DNA from: Alphaproteobacteria bacterium
GTDB lineage: Bacteria; Pseudomonadota; Alphaproteobacteria; CAAHEQ01; UBA3637
Direction: 5' to 3'
Assembly: GCA_017457425.1 (NCBI GenBank)
Contig: JAFTHM010000086.1
Span: forward strand, 1-34,412
Length of the DNA: 34,412 bases
This document shows, piece after piece, positions 6,901 to 25,810 of this stretch (positions within the stretch are counted from its first letter, which is position 1; every line of letters starts with the position of its first letter). The position numbers were made by a program, and so were the translations under genes. The notes under the pieces are model-generated. The model saw only the letters and a list, made by a program, of their open reading frames with translations, searched no databases and was not told the origin of the DNA.

Positions 6901-6930
6901 AACCATTTTGATGATATCAGAGTGGTTTTT
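6901..6930 (+). terminator. Intrinsic terminator after the HD-domain gene
   Basis: AACCATTTTGAT-gat-ATCAGAGTGGTT followed by Ts. Confidence 0.6.
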
Positions 6931-6963
6931 ATCTTATTTACCTCATTTAACGAAAAATACCTA

Positions 6964-6992
6964 TTGCATTTACGGATAAAATTTGGTACTGT
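6964..6992 (+). promoter_or_regulatory. Putative sigma70 promoter of RNA copy 1 and the pilin-like gene
   Basis: TTGCAT-17 nt-TACTGT with TG upstream of the -10; the first hairpin starts about 8 nt downstream. Confidence 0.6.
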
Positions 6993-7000
6993 ACAGCCAA

Positions 7001-7180
7001 GGCATGTATTATGCCCCGAGGTTTAGAAGCCTCTTGAAAGTTGTCTGAGTGCAGACGTAAAAAACTACCTTTTTGCCATTGGCAGGAAGGTAGTAGAATA
7101 AGGGTTTTATACCCCAATATACTACACTATTCTTTCAATAGCTTCTAACTTCCTGCCACTTTTAAAGTGGTTTTTGTTTT
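7001..7180 (+). ncRNA. Structured RNA family copy 1 (C4-antisense-like leader of the pilin-like gene)
   Basis: Hairpin GGCAT/ATGCC; GAGG-loop-CCTC; TTGAAAG/CTTTCAA; GTAGTA/TACTAC. TTAGAAGC and GGCAGGAAG pair with the contiguous GCTTCTAA-CTTCCTGCC (7141-7157). Ends in a hairpin plus T run. Confidence 0.75.
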
Positions 7181-7207
7181 AACGTAATGGACAAGAAAGG
7201 GAATTTT

Positions 7208-8401
7208 ATGACGATGAAACATTATGACTCCGGTCGTTCTATGGTTGAAATGCTGGGAACATTGGCGATTATCGGTGTTCTATCTGTTGGCGCTATCGCA
7301 GGATACAGCTACGGAATGGATAAATACCGTGCCAATCAAACGATTAATGATGTGATGCTGTTGGGGGTGGATGTAATTACACAAGCCTCACGAACTGCCG
7401 GAATGCCGAACTTATCTGCCGATTGGGGAACTAAAACAACAGCCGGATATGATTTTACGGTTGTACCAAACCCCTCAGATGATACGCAATACGGCCTTCA
7501 AATCAGCGGGGTTCCCGCCCGAGTGTGTAAAATGGTGGGTGATGCGTTAAAACCCATGGCCTCAGTTTATGTAAATGATGATGAACATATCACCGAAGAA
7601 GACCCGTGCGACGAATCGGACAACAACACCATGGAATTTTATTTTGACGTTTCCGCCACTTCGGGAGACCAATGTAAAATTGATGCCGATTGTGGAACCG
7701 ATAAATATTGCGATATGGGATTATGCTTTAGTGGGAATCACCCCGAAGTAATGGCCAATATCGTGGGTGGAACGTGTACCTCGGATGCTGATTGTAATAA
7801 GGGGTGGACAGGAACGAATTGCGCGTATTGTGATGCGACCTATGGATGTGTGGAAAAGTTTAATAATCACAATAAAGCGTGCACCTTAACGGATGGCAAT
7901 ATCGCCGGTAAATGTGCTGGTGGCCAATGTTTACCAACAGGTTGTACCTACGATACGAATAAATGCAGCGATAAAGAATATTGCGCCAGTCCGAACAATA
8001 GCTGTACCGAAGTCTTCCAAAGTGGAGAAACAGGTATGTGTGTGCCTATCAATACTACCTTTTCTAAAATCTCGGGAACCGAGTATTACATCTCCAATGG
8101 TCTGCTCAGTTGGTGGGATGCGGATGCCGCGTGTAAATCCATTAAAAAAGAGTTGTTGAGTGTATCTGACCTTGTTACGGAAAAGGATGGTAGTGCTTGG
8201 AAAGGAGATAATGGCGTTCACACCACAACGGCTCTTGCCAATGAATTATATAGTAAAGGATGGAACAGTACTGGGTATCCGTTCATCTGGACGAAAAACT
8301 GGCTAAATGATTCTTGCTACGCGTACGGCGTGTACCTGCGTAATGGTAACGTCTACAACGGCAATCGCTACGCCGAGGGCTACTACGTAGTCTGTAAGTA
8401 G
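7208..8401 (+). CDS. Type IV pilin-like protein with a Cys-rich stalk and C-terminal C-type-lectin-like domain; probable DGR target
   Basis: Prepilin-like SG|RSMVEMLGTLAIIGVLSVG (Glu at +5); CxxDADC repeats; CLec-like LSWWDADAACKS...IWT...AYGVYL..G......R.....VVCK; ATG at 7208 follows GAAAGG. Confidence 0.8.
   Translation: MTMKHYDSGRSMVEMLGTLAIIGVLSVGAIAGYSYGMDKYRANQTINDVMLLGVDVITQASRTAGMPNLSADWGTKTTAGYDFTVVPNPSDDTQYGLQISGVPARVCKMVGDALKPMASVYVNDDEHITEEDPCDESDNNTMEFYFDVSATSGDQCKIDADCGTDKYCDMGLCFSGNHPEVMANIVGGTCTSDADCNKGWTGTNCAYCDATYGCVEKFNNHNKACTLTDGNIAGKCAGGQCLPTGCTYDTNKCSDKEYCASPNNSCTEVFQSGETGMCVPINTTFSKISGTEYYISNGLLSWWDADAACKSIKKELLSVSDLVTEKDGSAWKGDNGVHTTTALANELYSKGWNSTGYPFIWTKNWLNDSCYAYGVYLRNGNVYNGNRYAEGYYVVCK
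8312..8401 (+). other. Candidate DGR variable region (VR)
   Basis: Run of NNC codons (7 of 7 Tyr are TAC; AAC, GGC, GCC) on a fixed A-x-x-V-x-L-x-x-G-x-V scaffold at the end of a CLec-like domain. Confidence 0.65.
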
Positions 8402-8435
8402 TTTTTCGGCTTTTTAATAGGGGGGACTTTTGTCT

Positions 8436-8469
8436 ATCGCCGATACTTATAGGCATCGGCGATTTTTTT
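8436..8469 (+). terminator. Hairpin after the pilin-like gene (terminator and/or DGR target-recognition stem-loop)
   Basis: ATCGCCGAT-10 nt-ATCGGCGAT followed by a T run, 35 nt after the stop. Confidence 0.7.
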
Positions 8470-8484
8470 AATTCCATATTCCTC

Positions 8485-8853
8485 TTATCTCACGCACGCA
8501 TCGCCGGACCAAGAATAATCCACAATAATATCGTTTTCGGTCGTAAATGTGGTTTCGCAGTAATACAATGTTTCGGATTGCATGGCATCATTGGCGGGGC
8601 TGTACAGAGAGTAATTACCAAAATTCACATCTTGCGGATTCATCCCCGTTTCCATGACCGTTTTTTGTTTCATATAGGTAAACAGCTGACGCCCAGCTCC
8701 CAAATTTTGCATTTGTGCCGGAGCACCCCAAGTGGCGACCAAATCGGCCTCACTACGCCCAACCCAACTTTCCAAATAATCATCATAATTTTGTACCGAA
8801 TGACATGCCGTCAGCATCATGAGGCACCCTGCCCCTAATACCCATTTTTTCAT
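8485..8853 (-). CDS. Hypothetical lipoprotein
   Basis: MKKWVLGAGCLMMLTAC lipobox; SWVGRSEADLVATWGAP resembles small outer-membrane lipoproteins. Confidence 0.8.
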   Translation of the reverse strand: MKKWVLGAGCLMMLTACHSVQNYDDYLESWVGRSEADLVATWGAPAQMQNLGAGRQLFTYMKQKTVMETGMNPQDVNFGNYSLYSPANDAMQSETLYYCETTFTTENDIIVDYSWSGDACVR

Positions 8854-8907
8854 TGTTTCCTCCTAAAAAAAATAGGGCTTACTTTTTTTAGCAAGCCCCC
8901 TTTTCAC

Positions 8908-9252
8908 TTAATCATCATACACGATGACATCTTCTACAACCGCCGATGTATCAGAAGATTTTGCCGGTGTATAGGTCAGCTCAATCCAATCATCTTCCTC
9001 TACCATTGGTTTATAGTAAGAGTCCCCTTTTTTATACATTTTTCCGTGTTTTTTCTTAGCATGTTTCATCATTTTTTTCTTGCGATACGTTGTATCATCC
9101 GTCAAAATCATTGTGGCTTGTTGCCCTGCATCCGTTTGAACGGTAATCATATTCCCTTCTTGTGAGACAACACGTCCTTTTGCGGTTTCGGCACTGGCTC
9201 CAAAGGCCACAAATAAAGCTGCCATGGCAACTGTCAAACATAATTTTTTCAT
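8908..9252 (-). CDS. Small secreted hypothetical protein (OB-fold-like beta strands with a Lys-rich insert)
   Basis: Signal peptide MKKLCLTVAMAALFVAFGASA; GGGG RBS before ATG at 9252. Confidence 0.75.
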   Translation of the reverse strand: MKKLCLTVAMAALFVAFGASAETAKGRVVSQEGNMITVQTDAGQQATMILTDDTTYRKKKMMKHAKKKHGKMYKKGDSYYKPMVEEDDWIELTYTPAKSSDTSAVVEDVIVYDD

Positions 9253-9413
9253 TGTTTCCCCCTTTTTTGTTATGTTAAACACATTTTTCACATAAGCGTT
9301 CTTTTAAGGGCGTGCAATACCGTTTAAAGCATAGTTTTACCCCCGATAAATTCATCACATAAAATCGCATTTTTTGCTTGAATTTATAAATTTTTTGGGC
9401 TAAAATCACACCC

Positions 9414-11627
9414 ATGACACAAACAGATTTAGAACAAATTAAAGAAACAAAATTGGCAGATGCTTTGTCTGAACGGTATTTGGCCTATGCCATGAGTACG
9501 ATTGTGGCACGGTCTTTACCGGACGTTCGGGACGGCTTAAAACCGGTACACAGACGGTTATTGTTTGCCATGCGTGGATTAAAATTGGACCCCGCTACAG
9601 GCTTTAAAAAATGCGCTCGTGTGGTCGGGGATGTGATTGGTAAATATCACCCTCACGGAGATACCGCCGTTTATGATGCTATGGTGCGTTTGGCACAAGA
9701 TTTTGCCGTGCGTTATCCGCTTGTGGACGGGCAAGGAAACTTTGGTAATATTGATGGGGACCGTGCCGCCGCTATGCGTTATACTGAGGCCAGATTAACC
9801 TCGGTTGCTATGGCGATTATGGACGGGTTAGACGACAATGCCGTTGATTTTGATAAAACCTATGACGGTACGGAAGACGAACCCTCCGTTATGCCTGCCG
9901 GATTTCCGAATTTACTTGCTAACGGTTCTAGTGGTATTGCCGTAGGTATGGCAACCAATATTCCGCCTCACAACGTTGGGGAAGTATGTGATGCCCTCAT
10001 CCATTTGATTAAACATCCGGAGGCTGATGTAGCCAAATTAATGGATTTTGTGTTGGGACCTGATTTTCCAACCGGCGGGTTGTTGGTGGAAAGCAAAGAA
10101 AGCCTCATCAAAACTTATACAACCGGTCGTGGGGCGATGAAGGTGCGTGCCAAATGGGAAAAAGAAGAATTATCCCAAGGCCGTTATCAAATCGTCATTA
10201 CTGAAATTCCGTATCAAGTTCAAAAATCCGACTTGATTATGAAAATTGCCAAATTATTGGCTGAGAAAAAATTACCGCTACTGGCCGATGTGCGTGATGA
10301 ATCGGCCGAAAATGTGCGTATTGTGTTGGAACCGAAATCTCGTTCAGTGCAACCGGAACAATTAATGGAACATCTGTTTAAATTTACGGATTTGCAAGTT
10401 AATTTCAACTTGAACATGAACGTGTTGGATGCCGATCATACCCCCAGAGTCATGAGTTTAAAAGAGGTCTTACAAGCCTTTTTAAAACATCGTGAAATCG
10501 TTCTAATTCGCCGTTCCAATTATCGGTTAGATAAAATCCGTCATCGTATGGAATTGTTGCAAGGTTTCATCTTGGCCTACCTCAATTTAGACCGTATTAT
10601 TGAAATCATTCGCAACGAAGATGAACCCAAACCCATTATGATTGAGGAATTCAGTCTCAGCGAAGTTCAAGCCGAAGCCATTTTAAATATGCGTTTACGG
10701 TCTTTACGTAAATTGGAAGAAGAACAATTGCGCCGTGAATTTGAAGATTTGGCTTTGGAGAAAGCCGGCCTTGAAACAATGCTGAGTGATGAAGGATTGC
10801 GTTTCAAAAAATTATCCGAAGAAATTTCGCTCATCAAAAAACAATTCGGACAAAAAACGGAACTTGGTGCCAGACGTACGGTTGTAGCCGATGCTCCGAT
10901 TGATATTGATGTGCCGATTGAAGCGATGGTTGAAAAAGAACCCATTACGGTTGTATTATCAAAACTCGGCTGGATTCGTGCGTTAAAAGGGCATACCAAC
11001 ATATCCGATTTGAAATTTAAAGAAGGCGATAAGATGAAATTATCGCTGACAACCTACACAACGGATAATATCTTGTTCTTTGCCACAAATGGGCGTTTCT
11101 ATACGCTTCTTGGTGATAAAATCAGTGGTGGTCGAGGCTTTGGTGAACCCATTCGTTTATCCATTGATTTACCGCAAGATGCCGATATAATCGCTATGTT
11201 TGTGTATAAACCAGATGAAAACCTATTTGTCGCCTCATCAAAGGGTAAAGGCTTTATCGTTGCTGCTAAAGATGTGATTGCTCAAACACGGGCCGGTAAA
11301 ATCATTATGAACATAACGGATGATAAAGCTATTTTGTGTACGCCGGCTAACGGTAATCATGTCGCCGTTATTGGTACAAACCGTAAAATGGTGGTCTTTA
11401 AGGCCGAAGAAATTCCGACCATGGCCAGAGGCAGTGGCGTTATCTTGCAAAAATATGCCGGCGCCACGTTGTCTGACGTCAAATTCTTTAATGTAGAGGA
11501 TGGTTTAGCTTTCCCATCAGGAAATGGCACACGTATTGAACGGGATATTACACCATGGCTTGCCAGACGAGCAACGGTCGGTAAAATTCCACCGGTCGGA
11601 TTCCCACGTTCCAATAAATTTAAATAG
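9414..11627 (+). CDS. parC: DNA topoisomerase IV subunit A
   Basis: [50 protein letters not shown]; 737 aa; no GyrA box seen. Confidence 0.95.
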
Positions 11628-11636
11628 GAGAAAATT

Positions 11637-12122
11637 ATGTCCGATACCTCCCTATCCGGTCATATCAGAACAGCTACCTTAGATGATGTCCCCACAATTT
11701 TAAAGCTTATCAACGGACACGCTAAAAAGGGATTAATGTTGATGAAATCACCCGTTGATATTTATCATAATATTTTTAACTTTGTCGTCTTTGAAACAGA
11801 TGGAAAAGTGGTTGGATGTTCCAGATTATCCGTTTTATGGAAAGATATCGGAGAGGTAGCCTCTTTGGCCGTATCGGATAATTATAAACGCCGTGGCATT
11901 GGGAAACTGTTGGTTAATGCGTGTTTGGATAAAGCAAAAAATATTGGTCTGCCTCAAGTTTTTACACTGACCTATCAAGTGGACTTTTTCAAAAACTGTG
12001 GGTTTAAAAAAGTAAAAAAGGAGACACTGCCCTACAAAGTTTTTGGTGATTGTTTAAAATGTCCAAAGGTAGAATGTTGTGATGAAACGGCGATGCTGTA
12101 CACAATTAATACAGCTAATTAG
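11637..12122 (+). CDS. GNAT N-acetyltransferase (short ArgA-like)
   Basis: EVASLAV...RRGIGKLLV...VFTLTYQVDFF...LPYKVFGDCLKCPKVECCDE. Confidence 0.85.
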   Translation: MSDTSLSGHIRTATLDDVPTILKLINGHAKKGLMLMKSPVDIYHNIFNFVVFETDGKVVGCSRLSVLWKDIGEVASLAVSDNYKRRGIGKLLVNACLDKAKNIGLPQVFTLTYQVDFFKNCGFKKVKKETLPYKVFGDCLKCPKVECCDETAMLYTINTAN

Positions 12123-12426
12123 TTTTTAGCTTGCCACATATGTTCTAAAGCATAATAGTCACGCGTTTCTTCGGTAAAAAGATGCACAATAACATCACCG
12201 GTATCCACAACAACCCAATTACCATCAGAATTTTTGCCCTCTATATAAGCCGAATATCCGTTCATTTTTAATTCTTTTGCTAAATTATCGGCCAATGCCA
12301 TCACATGACGGGTAGATGTTCCGGTTGCGATAATAAGATAATCGGCAAAACCTGCACGACCTGTCAAATTAATTTTGATGAGATCTAAGGCTTTGCCGTT
12401 ATCTAAACAGTCAAAGATAAAATCAA

Positions 12427-12430
<4 letters not shown>
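12119..12430 (-). CDS. rsfS: Ribosome silencing factor RsfS; start codon unresolved
   Basis: Frame is open from 12436 and reads [43 protein letters not shown]...[14 protein letters not shown]...[10 protein letters not shown]. Confidence 0.9.
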
Positions 12431-13990
<1,560 letters not shown>

Positions 13991-14177
13991 TCACCTTTTT
14001 CATTTACCTTTTATAATTAAAAAAAAATCTTGTCAACATACTTTCGTAAAAAAATTATTTTTTTTATCTATTTTTCAATTATTTTACGTTTAATATTTGG
14101 CACCTTCACAAAAAATATCTCTCTTGACATTATATTCTTTTTAATAGTATGCTTTAGGTTAGAAAGGATATTTGACT

Positions 14178-14741
14178 ATGACAAAAATTGCTATTTGGTG
14201 TCGCCATACAAACGATAATATTATCGGTATTGGACCCAATATTCCTTGGCATATTTCATCTGATTTCAAACGTTTTAAACGCATTACATCCGGTCATCAT
14301 TTAGTCGCCGGACAAACAACATATGAAAGCTTTCCGAACAGAACTTTGCCAAACAGAAAATTACATGTTTTAACTTTTGAAAAAGATTATCAAGTTTCCG
14401 ATTCAGACAATCATTTTGTACACACAGATTATCATGATTTTGATGCGTTTAATCATGATTTATTCATTGTCGGCGGTGCCAGTATTTATAAGTTATTTAT
14501 GGCTGATGAAACAGCTATGCCGGACATTATTATTGATTCGGAATACTTACCGGATTTAAGTACTGAATTCTCCGGTATGCCCGTCAATATCACCCCTTGT
14601 ATTGAAGCCATGCGATTGCATTATGAACCAATCGGAACTCCACAAAGATTAGACGATATTATCACAACTGTCTGGGTTAAAAAAGGCATTCAAACACCAA
14701 AAATTTTAGAACACATTTTAAACGCCATTCACCAACAATAA
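14178..14741 (+). CDS. folA: Dihydrofolate reductase (divergent)
   Basis: [23 protein letters not shown]...TYESF...LPNR...IVGGASIY; immediately upstream of thyA. Confidence 0.88.
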
Positions 14742-14754
14742 GAAAGGACATATT

Positions 14755-15555
14755 ATGGAACAAGCAATGGAACAACTATACTTAGATGTACTGAAAGACA
14801 TTTTACAAAACGGTACCGATAAAACAGACAGAACCGGCGTCGGTACACGCAGTGTTTTTATTCGCCAAATGCGTTTTGATTTAAGTAAAGGTTTTCCGCT
14901 TATCACCACAAAAAAAGTCCATCTTAAAAGTATCATTCACGAATTATTGTGGTTTATTAAGGGCGAAACAAATATTAAATATTTAAAAGACAACGGTGTT
15001 ACCATTTGGGATGAATGGGCCGACGAAAACGGCGATTTAGGACCGGTCTACGGATATCAATGGCGGAATTGGAACGGAGATGGCATTGATCAATTAGGTA
15101 ATTTAATTGAACGCATTAAAACAAAACCAAATGACAGACGTTTAATTTTAACGGCATGGAATCCATCCCAAGTGGATAAAATGAAATTACCACCGTGTCA
15201 TATGATGTGCCAATTTTATGTCGCAAACGGTAAATTATCTTGCCATTTATATCAACGCAGTTGCGATATGTTTTTGGGCGTTCCGTTTAATATTGCCTCA
15301 TATGCCCTGTTAACCATGATGATGGCTCAAGTATGTGGATTAGGATATGGCGAATTTATTCATACATTGGGTGATGCCCATATTTACAACAATCACTTTG
15401 ATCAAGTCAAAGAACAATTAACCCGCACACCTTATCCGGCTCCTCAAATGAAAATCAATCCAAATGTCAAAGATATTAATGATTTTGTGTATGAAGATTT
15501 TACGTTAGAAAATTATCAATGTCATCCAACAATTAAAGCACCCGTTGCGGTATAA
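14755..15555 (+). CDS. thyA: Thymidylate synthase
   Basis: [38 protein letters not shown], terminal IKAPVAV. Confidence 0.98.
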
Positions 15556-15560
15556 AGATG

Positions 15561-15589
15561 AAACGGAAGGCTGTTCCTTCCGTTTTTTT
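15561..15589 (+). terminator. thyA terminator
   Basis: AAACGGAAGG-ctgtt-CCTTCCGTTTTTTT. Confidence 0.85.
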
Positions 15590-15639
15590 ACATAAAAAAG
15601 GATAGACTTTTAAAAAATTGTATGCTAACCTATATATGC
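15581..15639 (+). repeat. 59-bp promoter block identical to the reverse complement of 22084-22142
   Basis: CGTTTTTTTACATAAAAAAGGATAGACTTTTAAAAAATTGTATGCTAACCTATATATGC; contains TAGACT-17-TAACCT with an extended -10 TG. Confidence 0.92.
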
Positions 15640-15830
15640 ATTCGGCATGATACCGAATGTGGAGGGCTCAAAACCTCCTCAAAGACGCCCTATCGCATGG
15701 GGCTTCCTCCAATTATGCGACTTCCGTCATGGCTGGAAGGTGGTAGAATAGCCCTAGGTCAATATACCACACTATTTCTTTGAGTAGTTTTGAGCTTCCA
15801 GCCACTCTTTTTTTAAGTGTGGCCTTTTTC
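15638..15830 (+). ncRNA. Structured RNA family copy 2 (orphan, no downstream CDS)
   Basis: GCATTCGG/CCGAATGT; GGAGG-loop-CCTCC; CTCAAAGA/TCTTTGAG; GTGGTA/TACCAC. CTCAAAAC and GGCTGGAAG pair with GTTTTGAG-CTTCCAGCC (15787-15803). GCCAC/GTGGC hairpin plus Ts. Confidence 0.78.
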
Positions 15831-15878
15831 TTAAAAAAACAGGTGCCTCTAAACACCTGAAAAAAAATTAAATGAACG

Positions 15879-15908
15879 AAAACGGATACTGTGACGGTAT
15901 CCGTTTTT
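15879..15908. terminator. Bidirectional terminator between RNA copy 2 and nagB
   Basis: AAAACGGATAC-tgtgacg-GTATCCGTTTTT. Confidence 0.8.
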
Positions 15909-15933
15909 ATATTTGAATAATATGGGGCTATGC

Positions 15934-16671
15934 CTATTTTATAGCCGCTTTATCGCACACAAATTCGGCATATTCGTGATTTTGCAACATACTGGCCGGA
16001 CAGTTGACTGATACGGGGGCTTGTGTAGCCAAACGAATGGCCTCGGCTTTTTTAGGGCCGGTCGCCAATACAATCACACGGCGTGCGTCAAAAATGGTTT
16101 TGAGTCCGATTGTAACGGCCCGAGTTGGTACGTCTTCTATTTTATCAAAAAATCTGGCATTTGCCTGAATCGTGCTTTGTGTTAAGCTTTGTTCATGTGT
16201 CGGCGTATCAAACGGCGTATTTGGTTCATTAAAGGCTAAATGCCCATTTTCACCAATACCGGCCAATTGAATATCTATTCCACCGGCGTTTTGAATAGCC
16301 ATTTCATACGCTCGGCAAAATGCGGGAATATCATCGGCCATACCATCCGGAATATTGATATTTTCGGGATGAATATCCACATGCTTAAATAAGTTTTCTT
16401 GCATAAAATAATGATAACTTTGCGGATGATCCGGCGTTAATCCGACATACTCATCCATATTAAAGGTTTTAACGTTTTTAAATGAAATATCGCCATTGTT
16501 ATAGGCTTGCACCAATCGTTCGTAAACCGGTATGGGTGTGGATCCCGTGGGCAATCCCAAAACTAAATAGGGTTTTGCCTCGGTCGGTACAAATGTTTTA
16601 ATGGCCTTTATCATTTCACCGGCGGCATAGTCGACTACTTCGGATACTGTTTCAAATGATATAACTTTCAT
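15934..16671 (-). CDS. nagB: Glucosamine-6-phosphate deaminase
   Basis: LVLGLPTGSTP, TFNMDEYVGL, GIGENGHLAFNEP, ANARFF. Confidence 0.96.
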   Translation of the reverse strand: MKVISFETVSEVVDYAAGEMIKAIKTFVPTEAKPYLVLGLPTGSTPIPVYERLVQAYNNGDISFKNVKTFNMDEYVGLTPDHPQSYHYFMQENLFKHVDIHPENINIPDGMADDIPAFCRAYEMAIQNAGGIDIQLAGIGENGHLAFNEPNTPFDTPTHEQSLTQSTIQANARFFDKIEDVPTRAVTIGLKTIFDARRVIVLATGPKKAEAIRLATQAPVSVNCPASMLQNHEYAEFVCDKAAIK

Positions 16672-16809
16672 GAACTCTCCTTTCGTTTTTTGACAGTATA
16701 ATTAATCTGATGCAGTTATGCAAGCACCCATATAAACCTTTTGCCGTATTTTCTTTATTTTTAAAATATGCTTTCTTATAGACTGAATGATTTTTCAAAA
16801 GGGGGACAA

Positions 16810-17961
16810 ATGAAAAAAATATTCTTATCGGGTGTGATGTGTTTACTGTGTGTACCGGCTTTGGCAGATACGCATGAAGCAAAATCCATTGCCCAAAAAT
16901 ACAATGATTTTAAACAAGAATTACAAGATAAAATAGGTTTATCTTATTCTGTAGATGTGTCGGCTTTGATGCAACGAGGCGCTCCAAATGGCAAAGGAAC
17001 AGCATGGCAAACCATGTATTATGGTGAAGCCAACTGGGATATGTTTAACAGCGATACATTTGGGGCCGGGTCTGTACAGATAGCTTATAACGCCGTACGG
17101 TATTGGGGCAAAAGTGCAACGTATGTTGGCAACCGAATCGGTGTAATTACGGATATCAATGATTACCCAAGCAATTCCAATGAATTTGACCAGCTCAGTT
17201 ATACACACCAATTTCCCGGCAAGATGAAATGGTTATCACTTACACTGGGTCAATTTCCAATTTACAATTTTGACGGTAGTGCCTATTTGGCCAATCAACA
17301 AACGAACTTTTTAAATTATGCTTTATCGCAAAATGGGTCATCCACTTATCCAACCGCCAGTTTAGGGGCCTATGCCACAATTACTCCGAATAACGAATGG
17401 TCATTCAGTGTTGGTATGCAAGATGCGCATAACATAGACGGCGAAACCATTTCTTCCAATAAATTCGGTAAAGGCAAATATACATCCTTTGCCAGTGTCA
17501 GCTATACCCCGACCGACAAAAACGGCAACCAAAACCAATACAGTTTGATGGTATATAATCAACCGAGTGTTCCTCAACAACCGGGGACCAGCAATGGATG
17601 GAGTGTGAACTTTTTGCAATATTTAACGGATAAATTTGCCGTAACAGGACGTGTTAATGGAGCTAGTAATTCCCCCGAAACCATTAAGCAATCTTATGTG
17701 TTAGGTGTTGTTTACAATAATCCCTTCAATCGCAACAAGTTAGACCAAATCGGATTTGCCGGAGCCGTTAATAAACTCAATAAATCCGTCAACGGTGCGG
17801 GAACTCGGTCGGTTGAAAATGTGCTAGAGGCCTACTATGCTTTTGGTCTGTCCGATTTTATGACTATTACGCCGGATATCCAATTTTATATTAACCCCGG
17901 TGATAACCAAAAATCCAATACAGCTACCGTGGCATCGGTCCGAGCCACTATGATGTTCTAA
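16810..17961 (+). CDS. Carbohydrate-selective porin (OprB-like)
   Basis: Signal peptide MKKIFL...PALA; ANQQTNFLN; LEAYY...ITPDIQFYINP; terminal Phe. Confidence 0.82.
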   Translation: MKKIFLSGVMCLLCVPALADTHEAKSIAQKYNDFKQELQDKIGLSYSVDVSALMQRGAPNGKGTAWQTMYYGEANWDMFNSDTFGAGSVQIAYNAVRYWGKSATYVGNRIGVITDINDYPSNSNEFDQLSYTHQFPGKMKWLSLTLGQFPIYNFDGSAYLANQQTNFLNYALSQNGSSTYPTASLGAYATITPNNEWSFSVGMQDAHNIDGETISSNKFGKGKYTSFASVSYTPTDKNGNQNQYSLMVYNQPSVPQQPGTSNGWSVNFLQYLTDKFAVTGRVNGASNSPETIKQSYVLGVVYNNPFNRNKLDQIGFAGAVNKLNKSVNGAGTRSVENVLEAYYAFGLSDFMTITPDIQFYINPGDNQKSNTATVASVRATMMF

Positions 17962-17976
17962 AAAGGACCAGCATTT

Positions 17977-18009
17977 AAAAACCTCTGGCAATTTGTCAGA
18001 GTTTTTTTT
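17977..18009. terminator. Terminator between the porin gene and a convergent gene
   Basis: AAAAAC-CTCTGGCA-att-TGTCAGAG-TTTTTTTT. Confidence 0.75.
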
Positions 18010-18033
18010 ATATCCGTCCGAAAAGCATAGCGC

Positions 18034-18540
18034 TTACTCTTGTCGTTCGTTTTGAGATGAATTACCACTGCCTACTGTGGTCGGATAAGAACACACCTGA
18101 CGAATATGGTTGCATCTTTCTTGAACCGCCGCCATTTTTTGTTGTACAGTCCGTACCTGTTGTTGATATTCGGGAGAATTTCTAACTTCTTGTATAGCGT
18201 TAGCCACTTCCGGATTTTCATGTTCCATTTTGCGTACAGCCTTTGATATATCACGGCTAACACGGTGCATATCCCCCATTATGGCTTGAAAATCTTCTCT
18301 TAAGCCCCCGACAGATGATTGACGTTTTTTATAGCTAGGTAAACCATCGTTTTCCCCAATATCCTTAGGTTCTTGATAAGGTCTAGGTCGGTACTCTCCA
18401 AAAGTGATAACGCAGGCCAATCCTTCAAAAAACGGATGAAGCTGTTTATCAATAAAACGACATACTTTCAAAATTGCAGGGCCGTATTTTTCACAAAAAC
18501 GATCCAATAATGAGGGGCGAGGTCTTCTTCTTTTTTTCAT
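18034..18540 (-). CDS. Hypothetical protein (basic N-terminus, helical C-terminal half)
   Basis: 168-aa ORF with an AAGGAG RBS; no recognisable family. Confidence 0.7.
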   Translation of the reverse strand: MKKRRRPRPSLLDRFCEKYGPAILKVCRFIDKQLHPFFEGLACVITFGEYRPRPYQEPKDIGENDGLPSYKKRQSSVGGLREDFQAIMGDMHRVSRDISKAVRKMEHENPEVANAIQEVRNSPEYQQQVRTVQQKMAAVQERCNHIRQVCSYPTTVGSGNSSQNERQE

Positions 18541-18662
18541 ATTTTCTCCTTTGAAAAAGGATATAATAAAATCTTTAAAAAATCAACAAAAAAACTTTGC
18601 TTTTTTGAAAAAAAACTGTATAATGCCGAATATTATTTGACTAACATAAAAAGGAAAAACAA

Positions 18663-21167
18663 ATGTCTGAATATAATCATCTTGAAATTGAACAAAAATG
18701 GCAAAAATATTGGGATGAACACAAATCATTTCATGTTGAAATTGATAAATCCAAACCAAAATATTATTCGTTGGTGATGTTTCCGTATCCGTCCGGTGCC
18801 GGATTACACGTCGGACATGCCGAAAACTACACGATTTCAGATATTATGTCCCGTTATAAACGGATGCGTGGTTTTAACGTATTGCAACCAATGGGATGGG
18901 ATGCTTTCGGATTGCCGACAGAACGATATGCCGAACGTAGTGGATTGCATCCGGCCGAAGTAACATCACAAAATGCCGATGTATTTCGCACACAATTAAA
19001 GGCTATGGGACTTTCCTATGATTGGGACAGAGAAATCAATACAACAGACCCAAGCTATTACAAATGGACACAATACATTTTTAAAATTTTGTTTGATAAA
19101 GGGTTGGCATACGAAGTTATCACTCCTGTAAATTGGTGCCCGAAACTGGGAACTGTTTTGGCTAATGAAGAGGTCAAGGACGGCAAATATGTGGAAACGG
19201 GTGATGAAGTGATTAAAAAACCCATGCGTCAATGGATGTTGAAAATCACAGCCTATGCCGAAAGATTGTTGCAAGACATTGATAAATTGGATTGGCCGGA
19301 AGGCATCAAAACCATGCAACGTGAATGGATTGGTAAATCCACCGGTGCCGATGTGAATTTTAAAGTGGCCGGAACCAATGCCGAATTTACGGTCTATACA
19401 ACTCGTCCGGATACGTTATTTGGGGCAACATACTGTGTGTTGGCTCCGGAACATGCTCTTGTGAAAGAAATTACCACAGATGACAGACGTGCCGAGGTTG
19501 AAAAATACGTTGAGGAGGCCGGCAAAAAATCCGCTCAAGACCGTATGGCTGAGGCTAAAGAGAAAACAGGTGCTTTTACAGGGGCTTATGCCATTAACCC
19601 GTTAAACGGTACACAAATCCCTATTTACATTGCCGACTATGTGCTTGGCGATTACGGATATGGAGCCATTATGGCAGTGCCGGCTCACGACCAACGGGAC
19701 TATGACTTTGCGAAAAAATTCAATATTCCAATCATTCAAGTGATTGAAGGTGGCGATATTTCCAAAGAGGCACACGAAGGCGATGGTGCTTTAATCAACT
19801 CAGAATGGTTGAACGGATTACATGTTAAAGAATCCAAAGCCAAAATGATTGAATGGTTAGAGGCCAACGGTGTTGGTAAAGGAACCGTCAACTATAAACT
19901 GCGGGATTGGTTGTTTGCGCGTCAACGTTATTGGGGTGAACCGTTCCCGATTATTCATTGTGAAGACGGCACAATTAAATCTTTACCGATGGAAGATTTG
20001 CCGGTCTTATTGCCACCGATGGCCGATTTCAGACCAACGGCAGACGGTGAACCGCCCCTCGCCCGTCAAACTCAGTGGGTGGAAACAATTGATAAAGAAA
20101 CGGGAAAACCGGCTAAACGTGAAACGAACACAATGCCTCAATGGGCCGGTTCCAGCTGGTATTTCTTGCGTTACTGCGACCCACATAATGATACGGCTTT
20201 TGTCAGCAAAGAAGCCGACGAGTACTGGATGCCGGTTGATTTATATGTCGGTGGTGTAGAACACGCCGTATTACACTTGCTGTATGCTCGTTTCTGGCAA
20301 AAGGTATTGTTTGATGCCGGTTTGGTCTCTACGGATGAACCGTTCCAACGCCTTGTCAACCAAGGGATGATTTTGGCTTATTCTTACCGTGATGATAACG
20401 GCAAATACTACTATCCGAAAGATGTGGAACGCCGTGGAAATGATTGGTATGTTAAAGGAACAGACACCCGTGTGAATACGCAAGTGGAAAAAATGAGTAA
20501 ATCACGTTATAACGTTGTTAATCCGGATGATGTGGCCAAAGAATTTGGTGCCGATTCCATGCGTTTATACTTGATGTTTATGGGACCGATTGAGGCCGAA
20601 AAGCCTTGGGCCTCTGATGGTATTAACGGTGTTAATCGTTTCTTAAAACGCACTTGGAATGTGTTTGAAACAGACGGTAAAATTGCCGAAACGGGCGATG
20701 AGGCTTTAACAAAATTAATGCATAAAACCATTAAAGGTATTACCGCCGATATGGAAGCTTTGTCCTATAATACGGCGATTGCCAAATTAATGGAGTTTTT
20801 AAATGCCGTTTATAAATCCGATAAACCGGTTTCTAAGGCCGATATGGAATCTTTTGTATTGATGTTGGCTCCTCAAGCCCCACATATTGCAGAAGAATTG
20901 TGGGAACGTCTGGGACATACTGACTCTTTGACTTATGCGCCATGGCCGACATATGATGAAGCCATGACTCAAGATAACGAAATGGAAATCGTTGTTCAGG
21001 TGTTGGGCAAAAAACGGGCCAATATTATGGTGGCTACAAATGCAACAAAAGAAGATGTTTTGGCCGCAGCCAAAGCCAATGAAAACGTTGCCACTCATTT
21101 AAACGGCAAAGAGATTGTCAAAGAAATCTATGTGCCAAATCGCTTAGTGAACTTTGTGGTGAAATAG
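18663..21167 (+). CDS. leuS: Leucine--tRNA ligase
   Basis: MFPYPSGAGLHVGH (HIGH), YTTRPDTLFG editing domain, KMSKS. Confidence 0.98.
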   Translation: MSEYNHLEIEQKWQKYWDEHKSFHVEIDKSKPKYYSLVMFPYPSGAGLHVGHAENYTISDIMSRYKRMRGFNVLQPMGWDAFGLPTERYAERSGLHPAEVTSQNADVFRTQLKAMGLSYDWDREINTTDPSYYKWTQYIFKILFDKGLAYEVITPVNWCPKLGTVLANEEVKDGKYVETGDEVIKKPMRQWMLKITAYAERLLQDIDKLDWPEGIKTMQREWIGKSTGADVNFKVAGTNAEFTVYTTRPDTLFGATYCVLAPEHALVKEITTDDRRAEVEKYVEEAGKKSAQDRMAEAKEKTGAFTGAYAINPLNGTQIPIYIADYVLGDYGYGAIMAVPAHDQRDYDFAKKFNIPIIQVIEGGDISKEAHEGDGALINSEWLNGLHVKESKAKMIEWLEANGVGKGTVNYKLRDWLFARQRYWGEPFPIIHCEDGTIKSLPMEDLPVLLPPMADFRPTADGEPPLARQTQWVETIDKETGKPAKRETNTMPQWAGSSWYFLRYCDPHNDTAFVSKEADEYWMPVDLYVGGVEHAVLHLLYARFWQKVLFDAGLVSTDEPFQRLVNQGMILAYSYRDDNGKYYYPKDVERRGNDWYVKGTDTRVNTQVEKMSKSRYNVVNPDDVAKEFGADSMRLYLMFMGPIEAEKPWASDGINGVNRFLKRTWNVFETDGKIAETGDEALTKLMHKTIKGITADMEALSYNTAIAKLMEFLNAVYKSDKPVSKADMESFVLMLAPQAPHIAEELWERLGHTDSLTYAPWPTYDEAMTQDNEMEIVVQVLGKKRANIMVATNATKEDVLAAAKANENVATHLNGKEIVKEIYVPNRLVNFVVK

Positions 21168-21608
21168 ATGAGTGAAAACGGTGCATTGTACGACATCATT
21201 GAAAAGGGCACTTTATCCGATTTAAAACAGGCTTTAGAAACCTACAAAATTAATACCAAAGATGAAGAGGGTATGAGTTTGCTGGCATGGGCTTGTGTTG
21301 CGGGTAAGAAACAAAAGGTTACTTATTTGTTAGAACAAGGGGCCGATCCGAACATCAAATGTAATGATGGCAGAACACCGCTGATGTATGCTGCCTCTAA
21401 TGATTATCCTGAAATTATTCGGGTGTTATTAAAGGCTGGAGCCGACCCGAAAATCGGAGACAAAACCGGTTGGACGGCGGAAACTTGGGCCGATGTTTTG
21501 TGGAATGAAAAATCCAAATTTGTGTTGCGAGAACATCGCAAAGGACGATTATTATCACAAGCCCCAAAGGGCAAACGTCCCCATAACGATAAAGGCCATT
21601 CAAGGTAG
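21168..21608 (+). CDS. Ankyrin repeat protein
   Basis: GMSLLAWAC...LLEQGADPN, GRTPLMYAA...LLKAGADP, GWTA; abuts the leuS stop. Confidence 0.9.
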   Translation: MSENGALYDIIEKGTLSDLKQALETYKINTKDEEGMSLLAWACVAGKKQKVTYLLEQGADPNIKCNDGRTPLMYAASNDYPEIIRVLLKAGADPKIGDKTGWTAETWADVLWNEKSKFVLREHRKGRLLSQAPKGKRPHNDKGHSR

Positions 21609-21630
21609 AAGTTATCAAGTTTAATAGGGT

Positions 21631-21660
21631 AAAACGGAAGGGATTATTCCTTCCGTTTTT
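21631..21660. terminator. Bidirectional terminator with the same stem as the thyA terminator
   Basis: AAAACGGAAGG-gattatt-CCTTCCGTTTTT. Confidence 0.85.
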
Positions 21661-21662
21661 GT

Positions 21663-21863
21663 TTATTTCATATTAATTTCTTGCGTATAACAATTTTCGG
21701 TAGTGATGACCCCTAATCCCCATTTGTATTCAATTTGGCATTTTTCAATGACCATGTGATTTCTGTCTCCGGAAATATTGGTAACAAACGGAGCGGACCG
21801 TGTATAGGTTGATGAACACGCCGAACACATTAAACCCAAAACAATTAAATTGACATATTTCAT
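21663..21863 (-). CDS. Small putative lipoprotein (66 aa) downstream of RNA copy 3
   Basis: GAAAGGA RBS; MKYVNLIVLGLMCSAC|SSTY lipobox-like; two further Cys. Confidence 0.72.
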   Translation of the reverse strand: MKYVNLIVLGLMCSACSSTYTRSAPFVTNISGDRNHMVIEKCQIEYKWGLGVITTENCYTQEINMK

Positions 21864-21887
21864 TTGAAGTATCCTTTCTTTAAAGTT

Positions 21888-22085
21888 AAAAGAAAGCCAC
21901 ACTTAAAAAAAGAGTGGCTGGAAGCTCAAACCTATTATCACAAATAGTGCGGTGTATTCGTCCAAAGGATTTATTTCACCGCCTTCCAACCACGTGGAAA
22001 ACGCACCTTTGTTTTTAATCCTCGTGCGTAAGGATATTGTGATATGAGGGTTTGAGTCCCCAACGCCCGAGAATTCCTCAGACGC
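21888..22085 (-). ncRNA. Structured RNA family copy 3 (leader of the small lipoprotein gene)
   Basis: On the minus strand: GCGTCTGAG/CTCGGGCGT; GGG-loop-CCC; TATCACAA/TTGTGATA; GCGGTG/CACCGC. CTCAAACC and GGTTGGAAG pair with GGTTTGAG-CTTCCAGCC. The 35-bp 3' block is identical to copy 2. Confidence 0.78.
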
Positions 22086-22142
22086 ATATATAGGTTAGCA
22101 TACAATTTTTTAAAAGTCTATCCTTTTTTATGTAAAAAAACG
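22084..22142 (-). repeat. Second copy of the 59-bp promoter block
   Basis: Exact reverse complement of 15581-15639 by eye alignment. Confidence 0.92.
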
Positions 22143-22144
22143 TT

Positions 22145-23092
22145 TTAAAACTTTCTGGGATGCAGTGGTTTTGCGTCCCATTTTTGAACAAACTCAGTCA
22201 AATCCGCATTGGAATGTTCGGGTAAAACAATCATTAATTTAACCAATTGATCGCCTTTATCTTTAACGCCTCGTCCTTTTAATCGTAAGGTTTTACCTGA
22301 ACTGGAATACGGCGGAACGGTCAAGGCTACCTCGCCATATGGTGTTGGCACCGTAATTTTTGCCCCCAAAACAGCCTCTTTTAAAGTAATCGGCACATTT
22401 AATAAGACGTTATTCCCCTCTCGTGTATATAGGGCGGACGGTTGCACTTTAATATTAATCAAAGCATCCCCCTTTTGCCCGCCATAACCGGCATCGCCCT
22501 GCCCTTTTAAACGCAAAGTTGACTCATTATTAACACCGGCCGGAATTTTAATTTTTAAATTTTTACCATTAGCAAGTCCTACGGTCGTTTCGCCTCCGGT
22601 AATGGATAAATCAAAGGCTACAGTCAAATTATAGGATACATCTTGACCGGCACCATATGCTTCATGCGTATGCGTGCGGCGGCGACCACTTCCGGCGCCC
22701 ATACCGCCCATATTACCGAACAAATCGGAAAAATTAAATCCACCCATACCGCCACCAAACATACTGGCCAAATCTTCCGGATTGATGTTATAGGTTTGAT
22801 ACCGACCGTTACCACCACCGAAACCACCGCCAAAACCGGCTTGGTCATAGGCACCGGCACCAAATGGTGTCGGATTCCCGTTTTCATCAATTAAGCCGTC
22901 ATCATAACGTTTACGTTTTTCTGCATCCGATAAAATTTCATAGGCGGCACTGATTTTTTTAAACTTTTCTGCGGCCGCTTTATCCGGATTCACATCAGGA
23001 TGCAGTGAGCGAGCCAATTTATGATAGGCTTTTTTAATTTCCGCAGAAGTTGCCGTTTTTGAAACACCTAATAAATCATACAATTTTGCCAT
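22145..23092 (-). CDS. DnaJ-class (CbpA-like, class B) chaperone
   Basis: J domain with HPD, G/F-rich linker, C-terminal domain, no zinc finger. Confidence 0.92.
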
Positions 23093-25733: not shown

Positions 25734-25810
25734 GCGCCCGTAGCTCAATTGGATAGAGCATCTGACTACGGATCAGAAGGTTGTAAGTTCGAATCCTGCC
25801 GGGCGCGCCA
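25734..25810 (+). tRNA. tRNA-Arg(ACG)
   Basis: GCGCCCG/CGGGCGC acceptor stem, TCTGA-CTACGGA-TCAGA anticodon arm, TTCGAAT T loop, encoded CCA; T stem is imperfect. Confidence 0.95.

Follow-up and report, generated by a model that had tools for sequence, protein, structure and literature searches.

What kind of RNA stands behind three dispersed stretches of about 190 nt in the chromosome of an uncultured alphaproteobacterium, alike in the order of their predicted helices and each preceded by a promoter-like sequence? The stretches lie in contig JAFTHM010000086.1 (34,412 nt, referred to as the window) of assembly GCA_017457425.1, Alphaproteobacteria bacterium, whose genome comprises 1.34 Mb in 154 contigs with 39% G+C and a completeness of 98.8%. 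A first-pass annotation had described them as copies of one structured RNA with a two-part guide/target code, related to the C4 and CI RNAs of phages P1 and P4 and controlling surface genes at non-prophage loci. C4/CI-type RNAs are textbook phage immunity factors; to our knowledge, their role outside phages, as in the sRNA-Xcc1 and Acinetobacter baumannii Group 1 RNAs, is largely unknown. Our analysis suggested that each copy is probably a leader transcribed from its own sigma-70-type promoter, namely a diverged phage P1/P4 immunity module in fused form that would act as a C4/CI-type termination switch. Below, P1 and P4 denote hairpins of the element unless the word phage precedes them.

The three copies, located at 7001-7180(+), 15638-15832(+), and 22085-21888(-), were clear homologues, and each contained the parts in the order given by the annotation. 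A profile of the three, run on their own genome, detected about 40 further copies. An alignment of 39 own-genome copies was made and later trimmed, a nested structure was written for it, and from these a covariance model of 188 positions and 41 pairs, R1, was built. R1 scored the window copies at 148.1, 128.0, and 127.3 bits (E 1.8e-37 to 5.4e-32), a match that is partly by construction, since all three are among the 39 seeds. Their folding was more stable than that of shuffled sequences (z -5.9, -6.1, and -5.6, with 0/200 shuffles equally good in each case).

In the 5' to 3' direction, the promoter is followed by a hairpin P0, a hairpin P1 with a 4-bp stem and an 8-nt loop carrying segment a, the variable 5' arm of P2, a hairpin P2a, an A-rich linker, and the segments b'' and b. 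Next come the long hairpin P3, two internal-loop strands of which are A-rich and conserved, and the 4-bp hairpin P4, the loop of which serves as the 3' arm of P2. After the segments a' and b', the element ends in a G+C-rich hairpin and its T run; the Shine-Dalgarno-like site and start codon of the gene lie about 20-35 nt further downstream. The P4 hairpin had been overlooked in the first-pass annotation. P1 with a:a' and P4 with P2 are built alike, in that the 3' part of the hairpin loop pairs outside the hairpin and 1-2 nt remain on its 5' side; an incompatibility of P4 with P2, considered at one stage, was withdrawn after the loop geometry had been worked through.

Pairing was analyzed in an alignment of 104 distinct copies, all from other genomes (A4), and in one of 48 own-genome copies (A6), with shuffles (n=500) and slid partners as controls. 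In the former, the whole structure (P0, P1, a:a', P2, b:b', P3, P3a, and P4) was 97.0% paired versus 73.9% after shuffling (0/500), a count that overstates significance because the copies are mutually related. The sturdier evidence for covariation is the slid-partner control, which left only 35-55% paired in the same 104 copies, together with the many pair types per column; 37 of the 41 pairs changed on both sides. Among these copies, P1 was paired in 98.1%, P2 in 93.5%, P3 in 97.7%, and the terminator helix in 95.8% of cells. In the alignment of 39 own-genome copies, the T columns after the terminator helix were invariant. The a:a' helix was paired in 99.4-100% of cells over both alignments, and b:b', also covarying, in 99.4-99.7%. 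R1's own structure, which includes b'':b and the terminator, was 95.5% paired versus 71.3% shuffled; in the own-genome copies the corresponding values were 92.5% versus 68.3%, and the full structure was 93.8% paired versus 72.4% shuffled (0/500). The helices b:b', P1, and P4 are absent from R1's structure, so the alignment was without bias towards them. The compensatory changes noted earlier in the stems and long-range pairs of the three window copies were thus not peculiar to them: every listed helix covaried and continued to do so among the 104 homologues. Copies down to about 50% sequence likeness retained all helices, the short internal ones included, by compensatory change.

Ten own-genome copies formed a subtype II with its own closing stem, decoy, and P4 sequence, mutually compensated, and with a nearly constant segment a. 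In subtype II, b column 193 changes from A to U, which is compensated in b' column 283 (AU 32, UA 9, GU 6) and likewise in b'' column 128 (UA 31, AU 9, UG 6). This double compensation indicated that b has two selected, mutually exclusive partners. The b'':b helix was paired in 93.6% of cells in the 104 copies, with many G-U pairs, and in 95.4% in the 48 own-genome copies. P4 also varied on both sides in subtype II (248-268 UA 38, CG 6; 249-267 AU 41, GC 3) and was altered in a few distant copies. An extended outer helix seen in minimum-free-energy folds, formed by the 5' arm of the P1 hairpin and the start of b' and lengthening a:a', was rejected as a conserved feature: it lacked covariation, was mismatched in subtype II, and competes with the well-supported b:b'.

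Energies were calculated for the 48 own-genome copies, one of which was mis-parsed. The median was -14.5 kcal/mol for b:b' versus -12.3 for b'':b, and b:b' was the stronger in 45/48 copies. The predicted terminator stem included the last 4 nt of b' in 44/48 copies, and its median energy was -10.8 kcal/mol with those b' bases and -4.45 without them. A T-run count from the same calculation (18/48) was discarded as an artefact, since the 46-nt piece had been folded in full and its A and T runs had paired together. Two marks of an attenuator were accordingly present, namely a T run preceded by a G+C-rich hairpin in the interval from promoter to start codon, and a mutually exclusive antiterminator and anti-antiterminator, since b pairs with either b' or b''. 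A terminator scan called the hairpin of window copy 1; those of copies 2 and 3 were not called because their stems have a mismatch or bulge.

Across 47 own-genome copies, a TTGCA-type -35 was located at -34/-33 relative to the first position of the model and a TG-extended -10 at about -13; a strict promoter pattern was satisfied by 28 of them. The sigma70-like promoter claimed before each copy was therefore upheld by motifs at a fixed distance and not by a generic sigma-70 scan, which gave no excess over shuffles (43 vs 41.6) and left unflagged the sites that we take as the family promoters. With the start codon and the Shine-Dalgarno-like site within about 20-35 nt of the T run, there is no room for a second promoter; with this sole available promoter and an intervening terminator, expression of the gene requires read-through.

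At gathering thresholds, a Rfam scan of the window returned only a tRNA, and the link to C4 surfaced only through the subtype II copies and a whole-genome scan. The best scores were 40.8 bits for sRNA-Xcc1 (gathering 53), 26 for C4 (45), 19.2 for c4-a1b1 (46.7), and 19.4 for isrK (50). The whole-genome scan with sRNA-Xcc1 gave 16 matches at E<=1, of 27.6-40.8 bits and full-length, and 16/16 were inside elements; six were type I copies, and all 10 subtype II copies matched in the same score range, five of them also matching C4 at 23.6-26 bits. The core of window copy 2 (15731-15811) aligned full-length with sRNA-Xcc1 at 40.7 bits (E 4.4e-6 to about 5e-6). One 5' domain matched c4-a1b1 at 19.2 bits over P0 and P1, full-length, and one matched isrK at 19.4 bits. 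In the full-length alignments (1-87 of 87), b:b' fell on the closing stem, P3, with its A-rich loop strands, on the first hairpin, P4 on the second hairpin, a' on the 3' junction, and the start of the terminator on the conserved 3' tail. The core thus has the closing stem around two hairpins and the single-stranded 3' junction that characterize the C4 clan. The 5' domain contains complements of both the junction and the second hairpin's loop, and its a segment stands, like a1, in an 8-nt loop of a 4-bp hairpin.

This mapping indicated that b:b' is the closing stem and that the antisense/target pairs are a':a and P2. In the two-part code proposed before, a:a' stood as a guide/target pair, and b:b' became the closing stem of the C4-like core. 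The helix named "closing stem" in the annotation was present, with a different role as the second guide/target pair, P2, whose 3' arm is the P4 loop. Subtype II, which precedes the same two gene families, bridges to the Rfam C4 clan. Judged from sequence and predicted fold, the element is a diverged, composite member of the C4/CI kind that current Rfam thresholds miss. The relation to the two phage RNAs was borne out by these below-threshold matches and by the order of parts in the phage P1 immI region.

That region, used as a positive control, scored 51 bits with c4-a1b1, 35.1 with isrK, and 68.8 with C4, in the same order and with similar spacing; the phage P1 record annotates a1, b1, c4, a2, and b2, followed by icd. 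The immI regions of phages P1 and P7 (RF03163 c4-a1b1, RF01695 C4) share with the element the succession of promoter, hairpin, a1-loop hairpin, b1, hairpin, and C4 core. They also share the closing stem around two hairpins, with the second loop and the 3' junction as antisense elements, and an upstream segment with the capacity to pair with the closing stem's 5' strand. In phage P1 (AF234172) this segment lies at 48318-48360, just upstream of C4, and its pairing was estimated at -23.8 kcal/mol versus -32.5 for the closing stem; its presence suggests that the decoy b'' may be old. Unlike the phage RNAs, the element has a closing stem of 9 bp rather than about 17, a long first hairpin with conserved A-rich internal loops, no a2/b2 over a downstream ribosome-binding site, and a terminator that overlaps the closing stem. 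It is chromosomal, occurs in up to about 50 copies per genome among housekeeping or envelope genes rather than in a phage or prophage context, and scores below the Rfam thresholds. C4 is described as being cut by RNase P from a longer transcript at a GGW motif, with small differences in the antisense loops setting specificity (PMC5320573). The core of the element begins with GG, like the reported C4 site, and may be processed in a similar way.

The closest logic to that proposed below is the logic described for phage P4 immunity, in which CI RNA, cut from the leader of the operon under its control, pairs with a complementary site further upstream in that leader. CI pairs with seqA and seqC and causes premature transcription termination (PMC4825925); for the downstream seqC of that description no counterpart was found in the element. 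The best-scoring known family for the core, sRNA-Xcc1 (RF02221), is reported as a verified 88-nt small RNA (sRNA) of Xanthomonas (PMC2996969) and as lying upstream of symE in integron cassettes (bioRxiv 10.1101/2025.06.18.660453). Its hosts are Gammaproteobacteria and its setting integron cassettes, in contrast to the element, the matches of which were all below 53 bits; neither a fused 5' target domain nor an overlapping terminator appears in the descriptions consulted. Many C4-like copies in one bacterial chromosome are also described for A. baumannii, where Group 1 comprises 21 RNAs with a conserved 5' extension (Region 1) and a variable specificity loop that appear to be processed at the GGW motif (PMC5320573). 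According to that account, those RNAs reach the Rfam C4 motif and are free sRNAs rather than gene leaders, whereas the present elements are leaders in a genome about one-third the size, each pairing with its own 5' domain. Leaders of the terminator/antiterminator/anti-antiterminator type likewise have a middle segment that pairs with either neighbour, one pairing taking bases from the terminator. Unlike classical attenuators and riboswitch platforms, however, the element shows no evident ligand, leader peptide, or binding protein, and its sensor part is an antisense-RNA fold. What is new here is the fused target domain, the decoy, the overlapping terminator, the absence of a downstream target, and the role as a leader of surface genes. 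Our literature search yielded no paper linking C4 antisense RNA with Alphaproteobacteria.

The genes behind the leaders were tabulated for 50 own-genome elements, with classes judged by eye from the N-termini and with crude picking of open reading frames: 25 preceded pilin-like genes with a class III signal-like start, 10 small Cys-rich secreted proteins, and 5 small lipoprotein-like proteins, and the remaining 10 were unclear, among them two orphans, one element at the end of a contig, and three whose frames were probably mis-called. A recognizable gene began within about 35 nt in 40/50. Among 97 downstream open reading frames in other genomes, some of them surely spurious, Pfam matches were PilS 12, Bundlin 12, OMP_b-brl 7, Opacity 7, Surface_Ag_2 6, Glycos_transf_1 4, OmpA_membrane 4, PagL 3, and others. 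In the window, the flanking genes have housekeeping functions (those for a DnaJ-like protein, thymidylate synthase, and 6-phosphogluconolactonase), in agreement with the non-prophage, surface-gene context proposed before. The further claim that the RNA controls surface genes stood as to position before such genes; the control itself is a reading of the anatomy.

The pilin-like protein of the window (7208-8401) had no Pfam or NCBIfam match and 1551 homologues in metagenome-assembled genomes of Alphaproteobacteria, named 'type II secretion system protein' or 'hypothetical'. Proteins of its family have 350-450 aa and an arginine after a conserved glycine, number at least 25 in the own genome, and have shorter relatives that match PilS and Bundlin; a literature search on the N-terminal motif found no paper. 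A family of about 135-aa secreted Cys-rich proteins was observed in about 10 copies, each behind a leader (e.g., downstream of C1:5931-6146 and C1:12817-13039). The genome also encodes one prepilin peptidase, three type II secretion system E (T2SS-E) ATPases, two GGDEF proteins, and a single NusG; a search of it for ANTAR domains was uninformative, as control genomes were silent as well. A 9.9-kb contig of a run of unrecorded kind (X5) joins position 6929 to 8485, which indicated that a related strain lacks the promoter, leader copy 1, and the pilin-like gene (6930-8484). The leader and its gene act as a gain/loss cassette. RNA libraries were represented by assembled contigs of metatranscriptome runs, from which starts, ends, and strand are not readable; a 1009-nt contig of one such run (X1) spans 21335-22300, that is, copy 3 and both neighbours, and documents presence in an RNA library rather than a transcript. 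Uncovered stretches and the low shares in runs X3 and X4 carry no evidential weight.

In accordance with the earlier expectation of many copies genome-wide, R1 matched 49 places in the own genome at E<=0.01, comprising the 39 seeds, nine further subtype II copies, and one truncated copy. In other genomes it gave 106 matches in 99 loci; 23/24 other genomes of the same family were matched, with 1-51 matches each, and 2/16 genomes from other families of the class (E about 1e-11). A survey at the order level, covering 80 genomes with that of the window included (E<=1e-6, at most 32 candidates being scored per genome), gave matches in 74/80 genomes and 15/16 genera. Matches numbering 20 or more were found in four genera, which suggested that amplification happened repeatedly. 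A conserved pattern of the element was found in at least 112 places in public genomes. Among the 80 matches listed, nearly all were from uncultured Alphaproteobacteria, proteobacteria, or Rhodospirillales metagenome-assembled genomes of rumen, gut, or faeces. Three bore other labels ('uncultured Eubacteriales' or '[Ruminococcus] gnavus' cleaned bins); these contigs carry the same pilin-like downstream genes and are therefore probably mis-binned alphaproteobacterial DNA.

The antisense segments matched their own leaders closely. Among 139 parsed copies, a' agreed with its own a at 6-7/7 positions in 136, and the P2 arms agreed at 7/7 in 106, with non-cognate pairs mostly at 4-5. In the 39 parsed own-genome copies, a' and the P2 3' arm together matched the own leader at 12-14/14 positions; no non-self pair reached 13/14 and six reached 12. 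Each of the 39 carried its own two-part code, exceeding the two or more specificity classes that had been claimed.

The following course of events is proposed from these features. The 5' domain (P0, P1 with a, and the P2 5' arm) would be the counterpart of the a1/b1 target region represented by c4-a1b1, isrK, and SeqA of phage P4. The 3' domain, in which the 9-bp b:b' encloses P3 and P4, would be the counterpart of C4, CI, and sRNA-Xcc1, with the P4 loop and a' as antisense elements. These two elements pair in cis, a' with a and the loop with the 5' arm of P2. To this module two features appear to have been added, a terminator that takes the last 3-4 nt of b' into its 5' arm, and the wobble-rich decoy b'' upstream of b. 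The b'':b hairpin would form first; b' would then be left free, the terminator would form, and the gene would be off. Once a' and the P4 loop have emerged, they may dock on a and the P2 5' arm as a toehold, setting b' beside b so that b' could displace b''. The b:b' helix would then close the core and cripple the terminator, allowing read-through to the pilin-like or envelope gene that begins 20-35 nt downstream. Blocking of the docking sites would be expected to favour termination. By analogy with CI of phage P4, the blocker might be the core RNA of the same locus, acting in trans on the nascent leader and thereby exerting locus-specific negative feedback.

Several points weigh against this proposal. 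The overlap between b' and the terminator amounts to 3-4 nt. No Rfam family reached its gathering score, and five type I copies, window copy 1 among them, were without a C4-clan match even in permissive scans (E<=1-10). No downstream a2/b2-like target was apparent when a' and the P2 3' arm were compared with the 75 nt after the terminator, cognate complementarity being equal to the non-cognate control in 139 elements. The leader is fully paired in cis and has no obvious sensor, and the conserved A-rich internal loops of P3 have no role in the model. The unique codes fit selected orthogonality and, equally, neutral drift of structural helices. Finally, we infer the termination/read-through switch from anatomy, the sole expression data being the assembled metatranscriptome contigs.

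The same observations were considered under other explanations. That the ~190-nt RNA or its processed core is a free C4-type sRNA acting in trans on other mRNAs, with the downstream genes merely read through or sharing the promoter, would accord with the element's own promoter and terminator, with the existence of orphans (copy 2 of the window and, on contig C22, the leading member of a tandem pair), and with the discrete nature of sRNA-Xcc1 and the 21 A. baumannii C4-like RNAs as described (PMC2996969, PMC5320573). However, clear orphans made up only 2/50 elements, with one more off a contig end, the 40 elements with a closely following gene leave no room for another promoter, and the antisense elements are matched by sites in the own leader; we consider trans-acting sRNA genes unlikely. 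A riboswitch, in which the pseudoknotted fold is an aptamer and a ligand or ion, such as a second messenger, stabilizes b:b' against b'' and prevents termination, would share the terminator/antiterminator/anti-antiterminator layout and the position directly before genes. The strong conservation of nucleotides left unpaired at the P3/P4 junction and within the internal loop of P3 is in keeping with it, and the two GGDEF proteins, together with the surface and pilus genes under control, would make a second messenger a candidate. On the other hand, homology to an antisense-RNA family without known ligands explains the fold, conserved unpaired positions are few for a 190-nt aptamer, the downstream genes have no common metabolic theme, and no Rfam riboswitch family was matched, all of which makes an aptamer decidedly unlikely.

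The observations that copy number follows paralogous gene families and that one promoter-leader-gene cassette is absent from a related strain would suit a constitutive structured 5' untranslated region, that is, a processing or stability module (e.g., one in which RNase P cuts where the core begins and leaves the mRNA with a defined and protected end) copied with an expanding gene family. C4 precursors are reported to be RNase P substrates (PMC5320573), and the core starts with GG as in C4. Nevertheless, such a module would leave unexplained the covariation of both b'' and b' with b as well as the terminator-like hairpin and T run found between promoter and gene in nearly all copies, and is in our opinion very improbable. 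The high copy number and the strain-level presence or absence of that cassette would also be expected of a mobile repeat resembling a miniature inverted-repeat transposable element, the long-range complementarity then representing terminal inverted repeats instead of RNA structure. This is hardly credible for an element whose copies, about 50% alike, still keep every helix by compensation, whose orientation relative to the downstream gene is fixed, and which is conserved in 15/16 genera.

The conditionally terminated leader thus being the preferred reading, a more speculative form of it can be added, which we regard as rather unlikely. Core RNA set free from terminated or processed leaders would bind in trans at the a and P2 sites of nascent leaders from the same locus and tip the balance of b'' and b' to termination, as a self-addressed 'immunity' circuit; since each copy has a unique two-part code, its core would act on its own locus only. 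About 50 orthogonal, RNA-only autoregulatory loops would then act on the envelope and pilin-like genes of one 1.3-Mb genome, the orphan copies being purely regulatory. If this were true, a phage immunity device would have become a general means by which the cell doses or varies its surface.

Apart from that possibility, pilin-like, outer-membrane, and glycosylation genes throughout an order of uncultured Alphaproteobacteria from gut and rumen have a diverged form of C4 as their standard leader, which has reached 20-50 copies in several genera with genomes of about 1-1.5 Mb. The family adds an RNA family lying below current Rfam thresholds and offers hundreds of natural variants in which the a1/b1-C4 pairing, the closing-stem decoy, the overlapping terminator, and the code of each copy are legible from covariation. 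It makes testable both the purpose of the a1/b1 sites of C4 and the coupling of antisense pairing to termination. The coordinates of the features are summarized in Table 1.

Table 1. Parts of the three window copies, their downstream genes, and the subtype II copies of the genome (window positions, except in the last row)
Feature	Position	Strand	Remark
Copy 1 promoter-like region	6964..6992	+	-35-like 6964-6969, -10-like 6987-6992; generic scan silent here
Copy 1 5' domain, c4-a1b1/isrK-like	7001..7040	+	Covariation; subtype II counterpart matches both models below threshold
Copy 1 P0 hairpin	7001-7015	+	
Copy 1 P1 hairpin	7018-7033	+	Loop segment a 7023-7030 (a1-like)
Copy 1 P2 5' arm	7034-7040	+	b1-like
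Copy 1 P2a hairpin and decoy b''	7043..7077	+	P2a 7043-7056; b'' 7068-7077, pairs with b
Copy 1 C4-like core	7081..7157	+	Covariation; architecture mapped on sRNA-Xcc1 and C4 models
Copy 1 b	7081-7089	+	
Copy 1 P3	7090-7125	+	
Copy 1 P4 hairpin	7127-7141	+	Loop is P2 3' arm 7132-7138
Copy 1 a'	7141-7148	+	
Copy 1 b'	7149-7157	+	
Copy 1 intrinsic terminator-like hairpin and T run	7155..7180	+	First bases common to b'; scan called 7155-7171
Copy 1 downstream pilin-like gene	7208..8401	+	Class III signal-like N-terminus; Shine-Dalgarno-like site; 27 nt past T run
Copy 2 promoter region	15603..15635	+	Identical to that of copy 3
Copy 2 5' domain with b''	15639..15728	+	b'' 15721-15728
Copy 2 P0	15639-15659	+	
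Copy 2 P1 hairpin	15661-15678	+	a 15667-15674
Copy 2 P2 5' arm	15678-15685	+	
Copy 2 P2a	15687-15703	+	
Copy 2 C4-like core	15731..15803	+	Full-length sRNA-Xcc1 alignment over 15731-15811
Copy 2 b	15731-15739	+	
Copy 2 P3	15740-15770	+	
Copy 2 P4 hairpin	15772-15787	+	Surrounds P2 3' arm 15777-15784
Copy 2 a'	15787-15794	+	
Copy 2 b'	15795-15803	+	
Copy 2 terminator-like hairpin and T run	15801..15832	+	
Copy 3 promoter region	22088..22120	-	
Copy 3 5' domain with b''	21994..22084	-	b'' 21994-22001
Copy 3 P0	22064-22084	-	
Copy 3 P1 hairpin	22046-22061	-	a 22049-22056
Copy 3 P2 5' arm	22037-22044	-	
Copy 3 P2a	22019-22034	-	
Copy 3 C4-like core	21916..21991	-	R1 score, covariation
Copy 3 b	21983-21991	-	
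Copy 3 P3	21949-21982	-	
Copy 3 P4 hairpin	21932-21947	-	Surrounds P2 3' arm 21936-21943
Copy 3 a'	21925-21932	-	
Copy 3 b'	21916-21924	-	
Copy 3 terminator-like hairpin and T run	21888..21918	-	
Copy 3 downstream small lipoprotein-like gene	21663..21863	-	66 aa from internal ATG; no NCBIfam match
Subtype II copies	C133, C120, C58, C63, C1:766, C85, C37, C38:27129, C118:16477, C40:18463		Own-genome contigs

Window copy 2 is an orphan, with no same-strand gene after it and a convergent next gene at 15934-16671. In its surroundings, between the thymidylate synthase gene and the convergent lactonase gene, strong terminator-like hairpins were observed at 15561-15585, 15840-15859, and 15879-15907, some of them usable on both strands. 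Contig C22 carries at 1587-2123 two tandem copies about 130 nt apart, of which the first is nearly identical to window copy 2 and the second to window copy 3; the second precedes the same small lipoprotein gene as copy 3. In the window, the counterparts of this pair are 6 kb apart on opposite strands, and the difference may reflect rearrangement or strain heterogeneity in the assembly.

Elsewhere in the window, promoter-like matches with identical hexamers were found at 18605, 18682, and 18736, at the start of an 834-aa open reading frame (18663-21167), which suggests a short tandem repeat within 18605-18765. The adjoining stretch 21168-21608 encodes a 146-aa ankyrin-repeat protein, unusual for free-living bacteria. 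The tRNA gene lies at 25734-25807 (64.9 bits).

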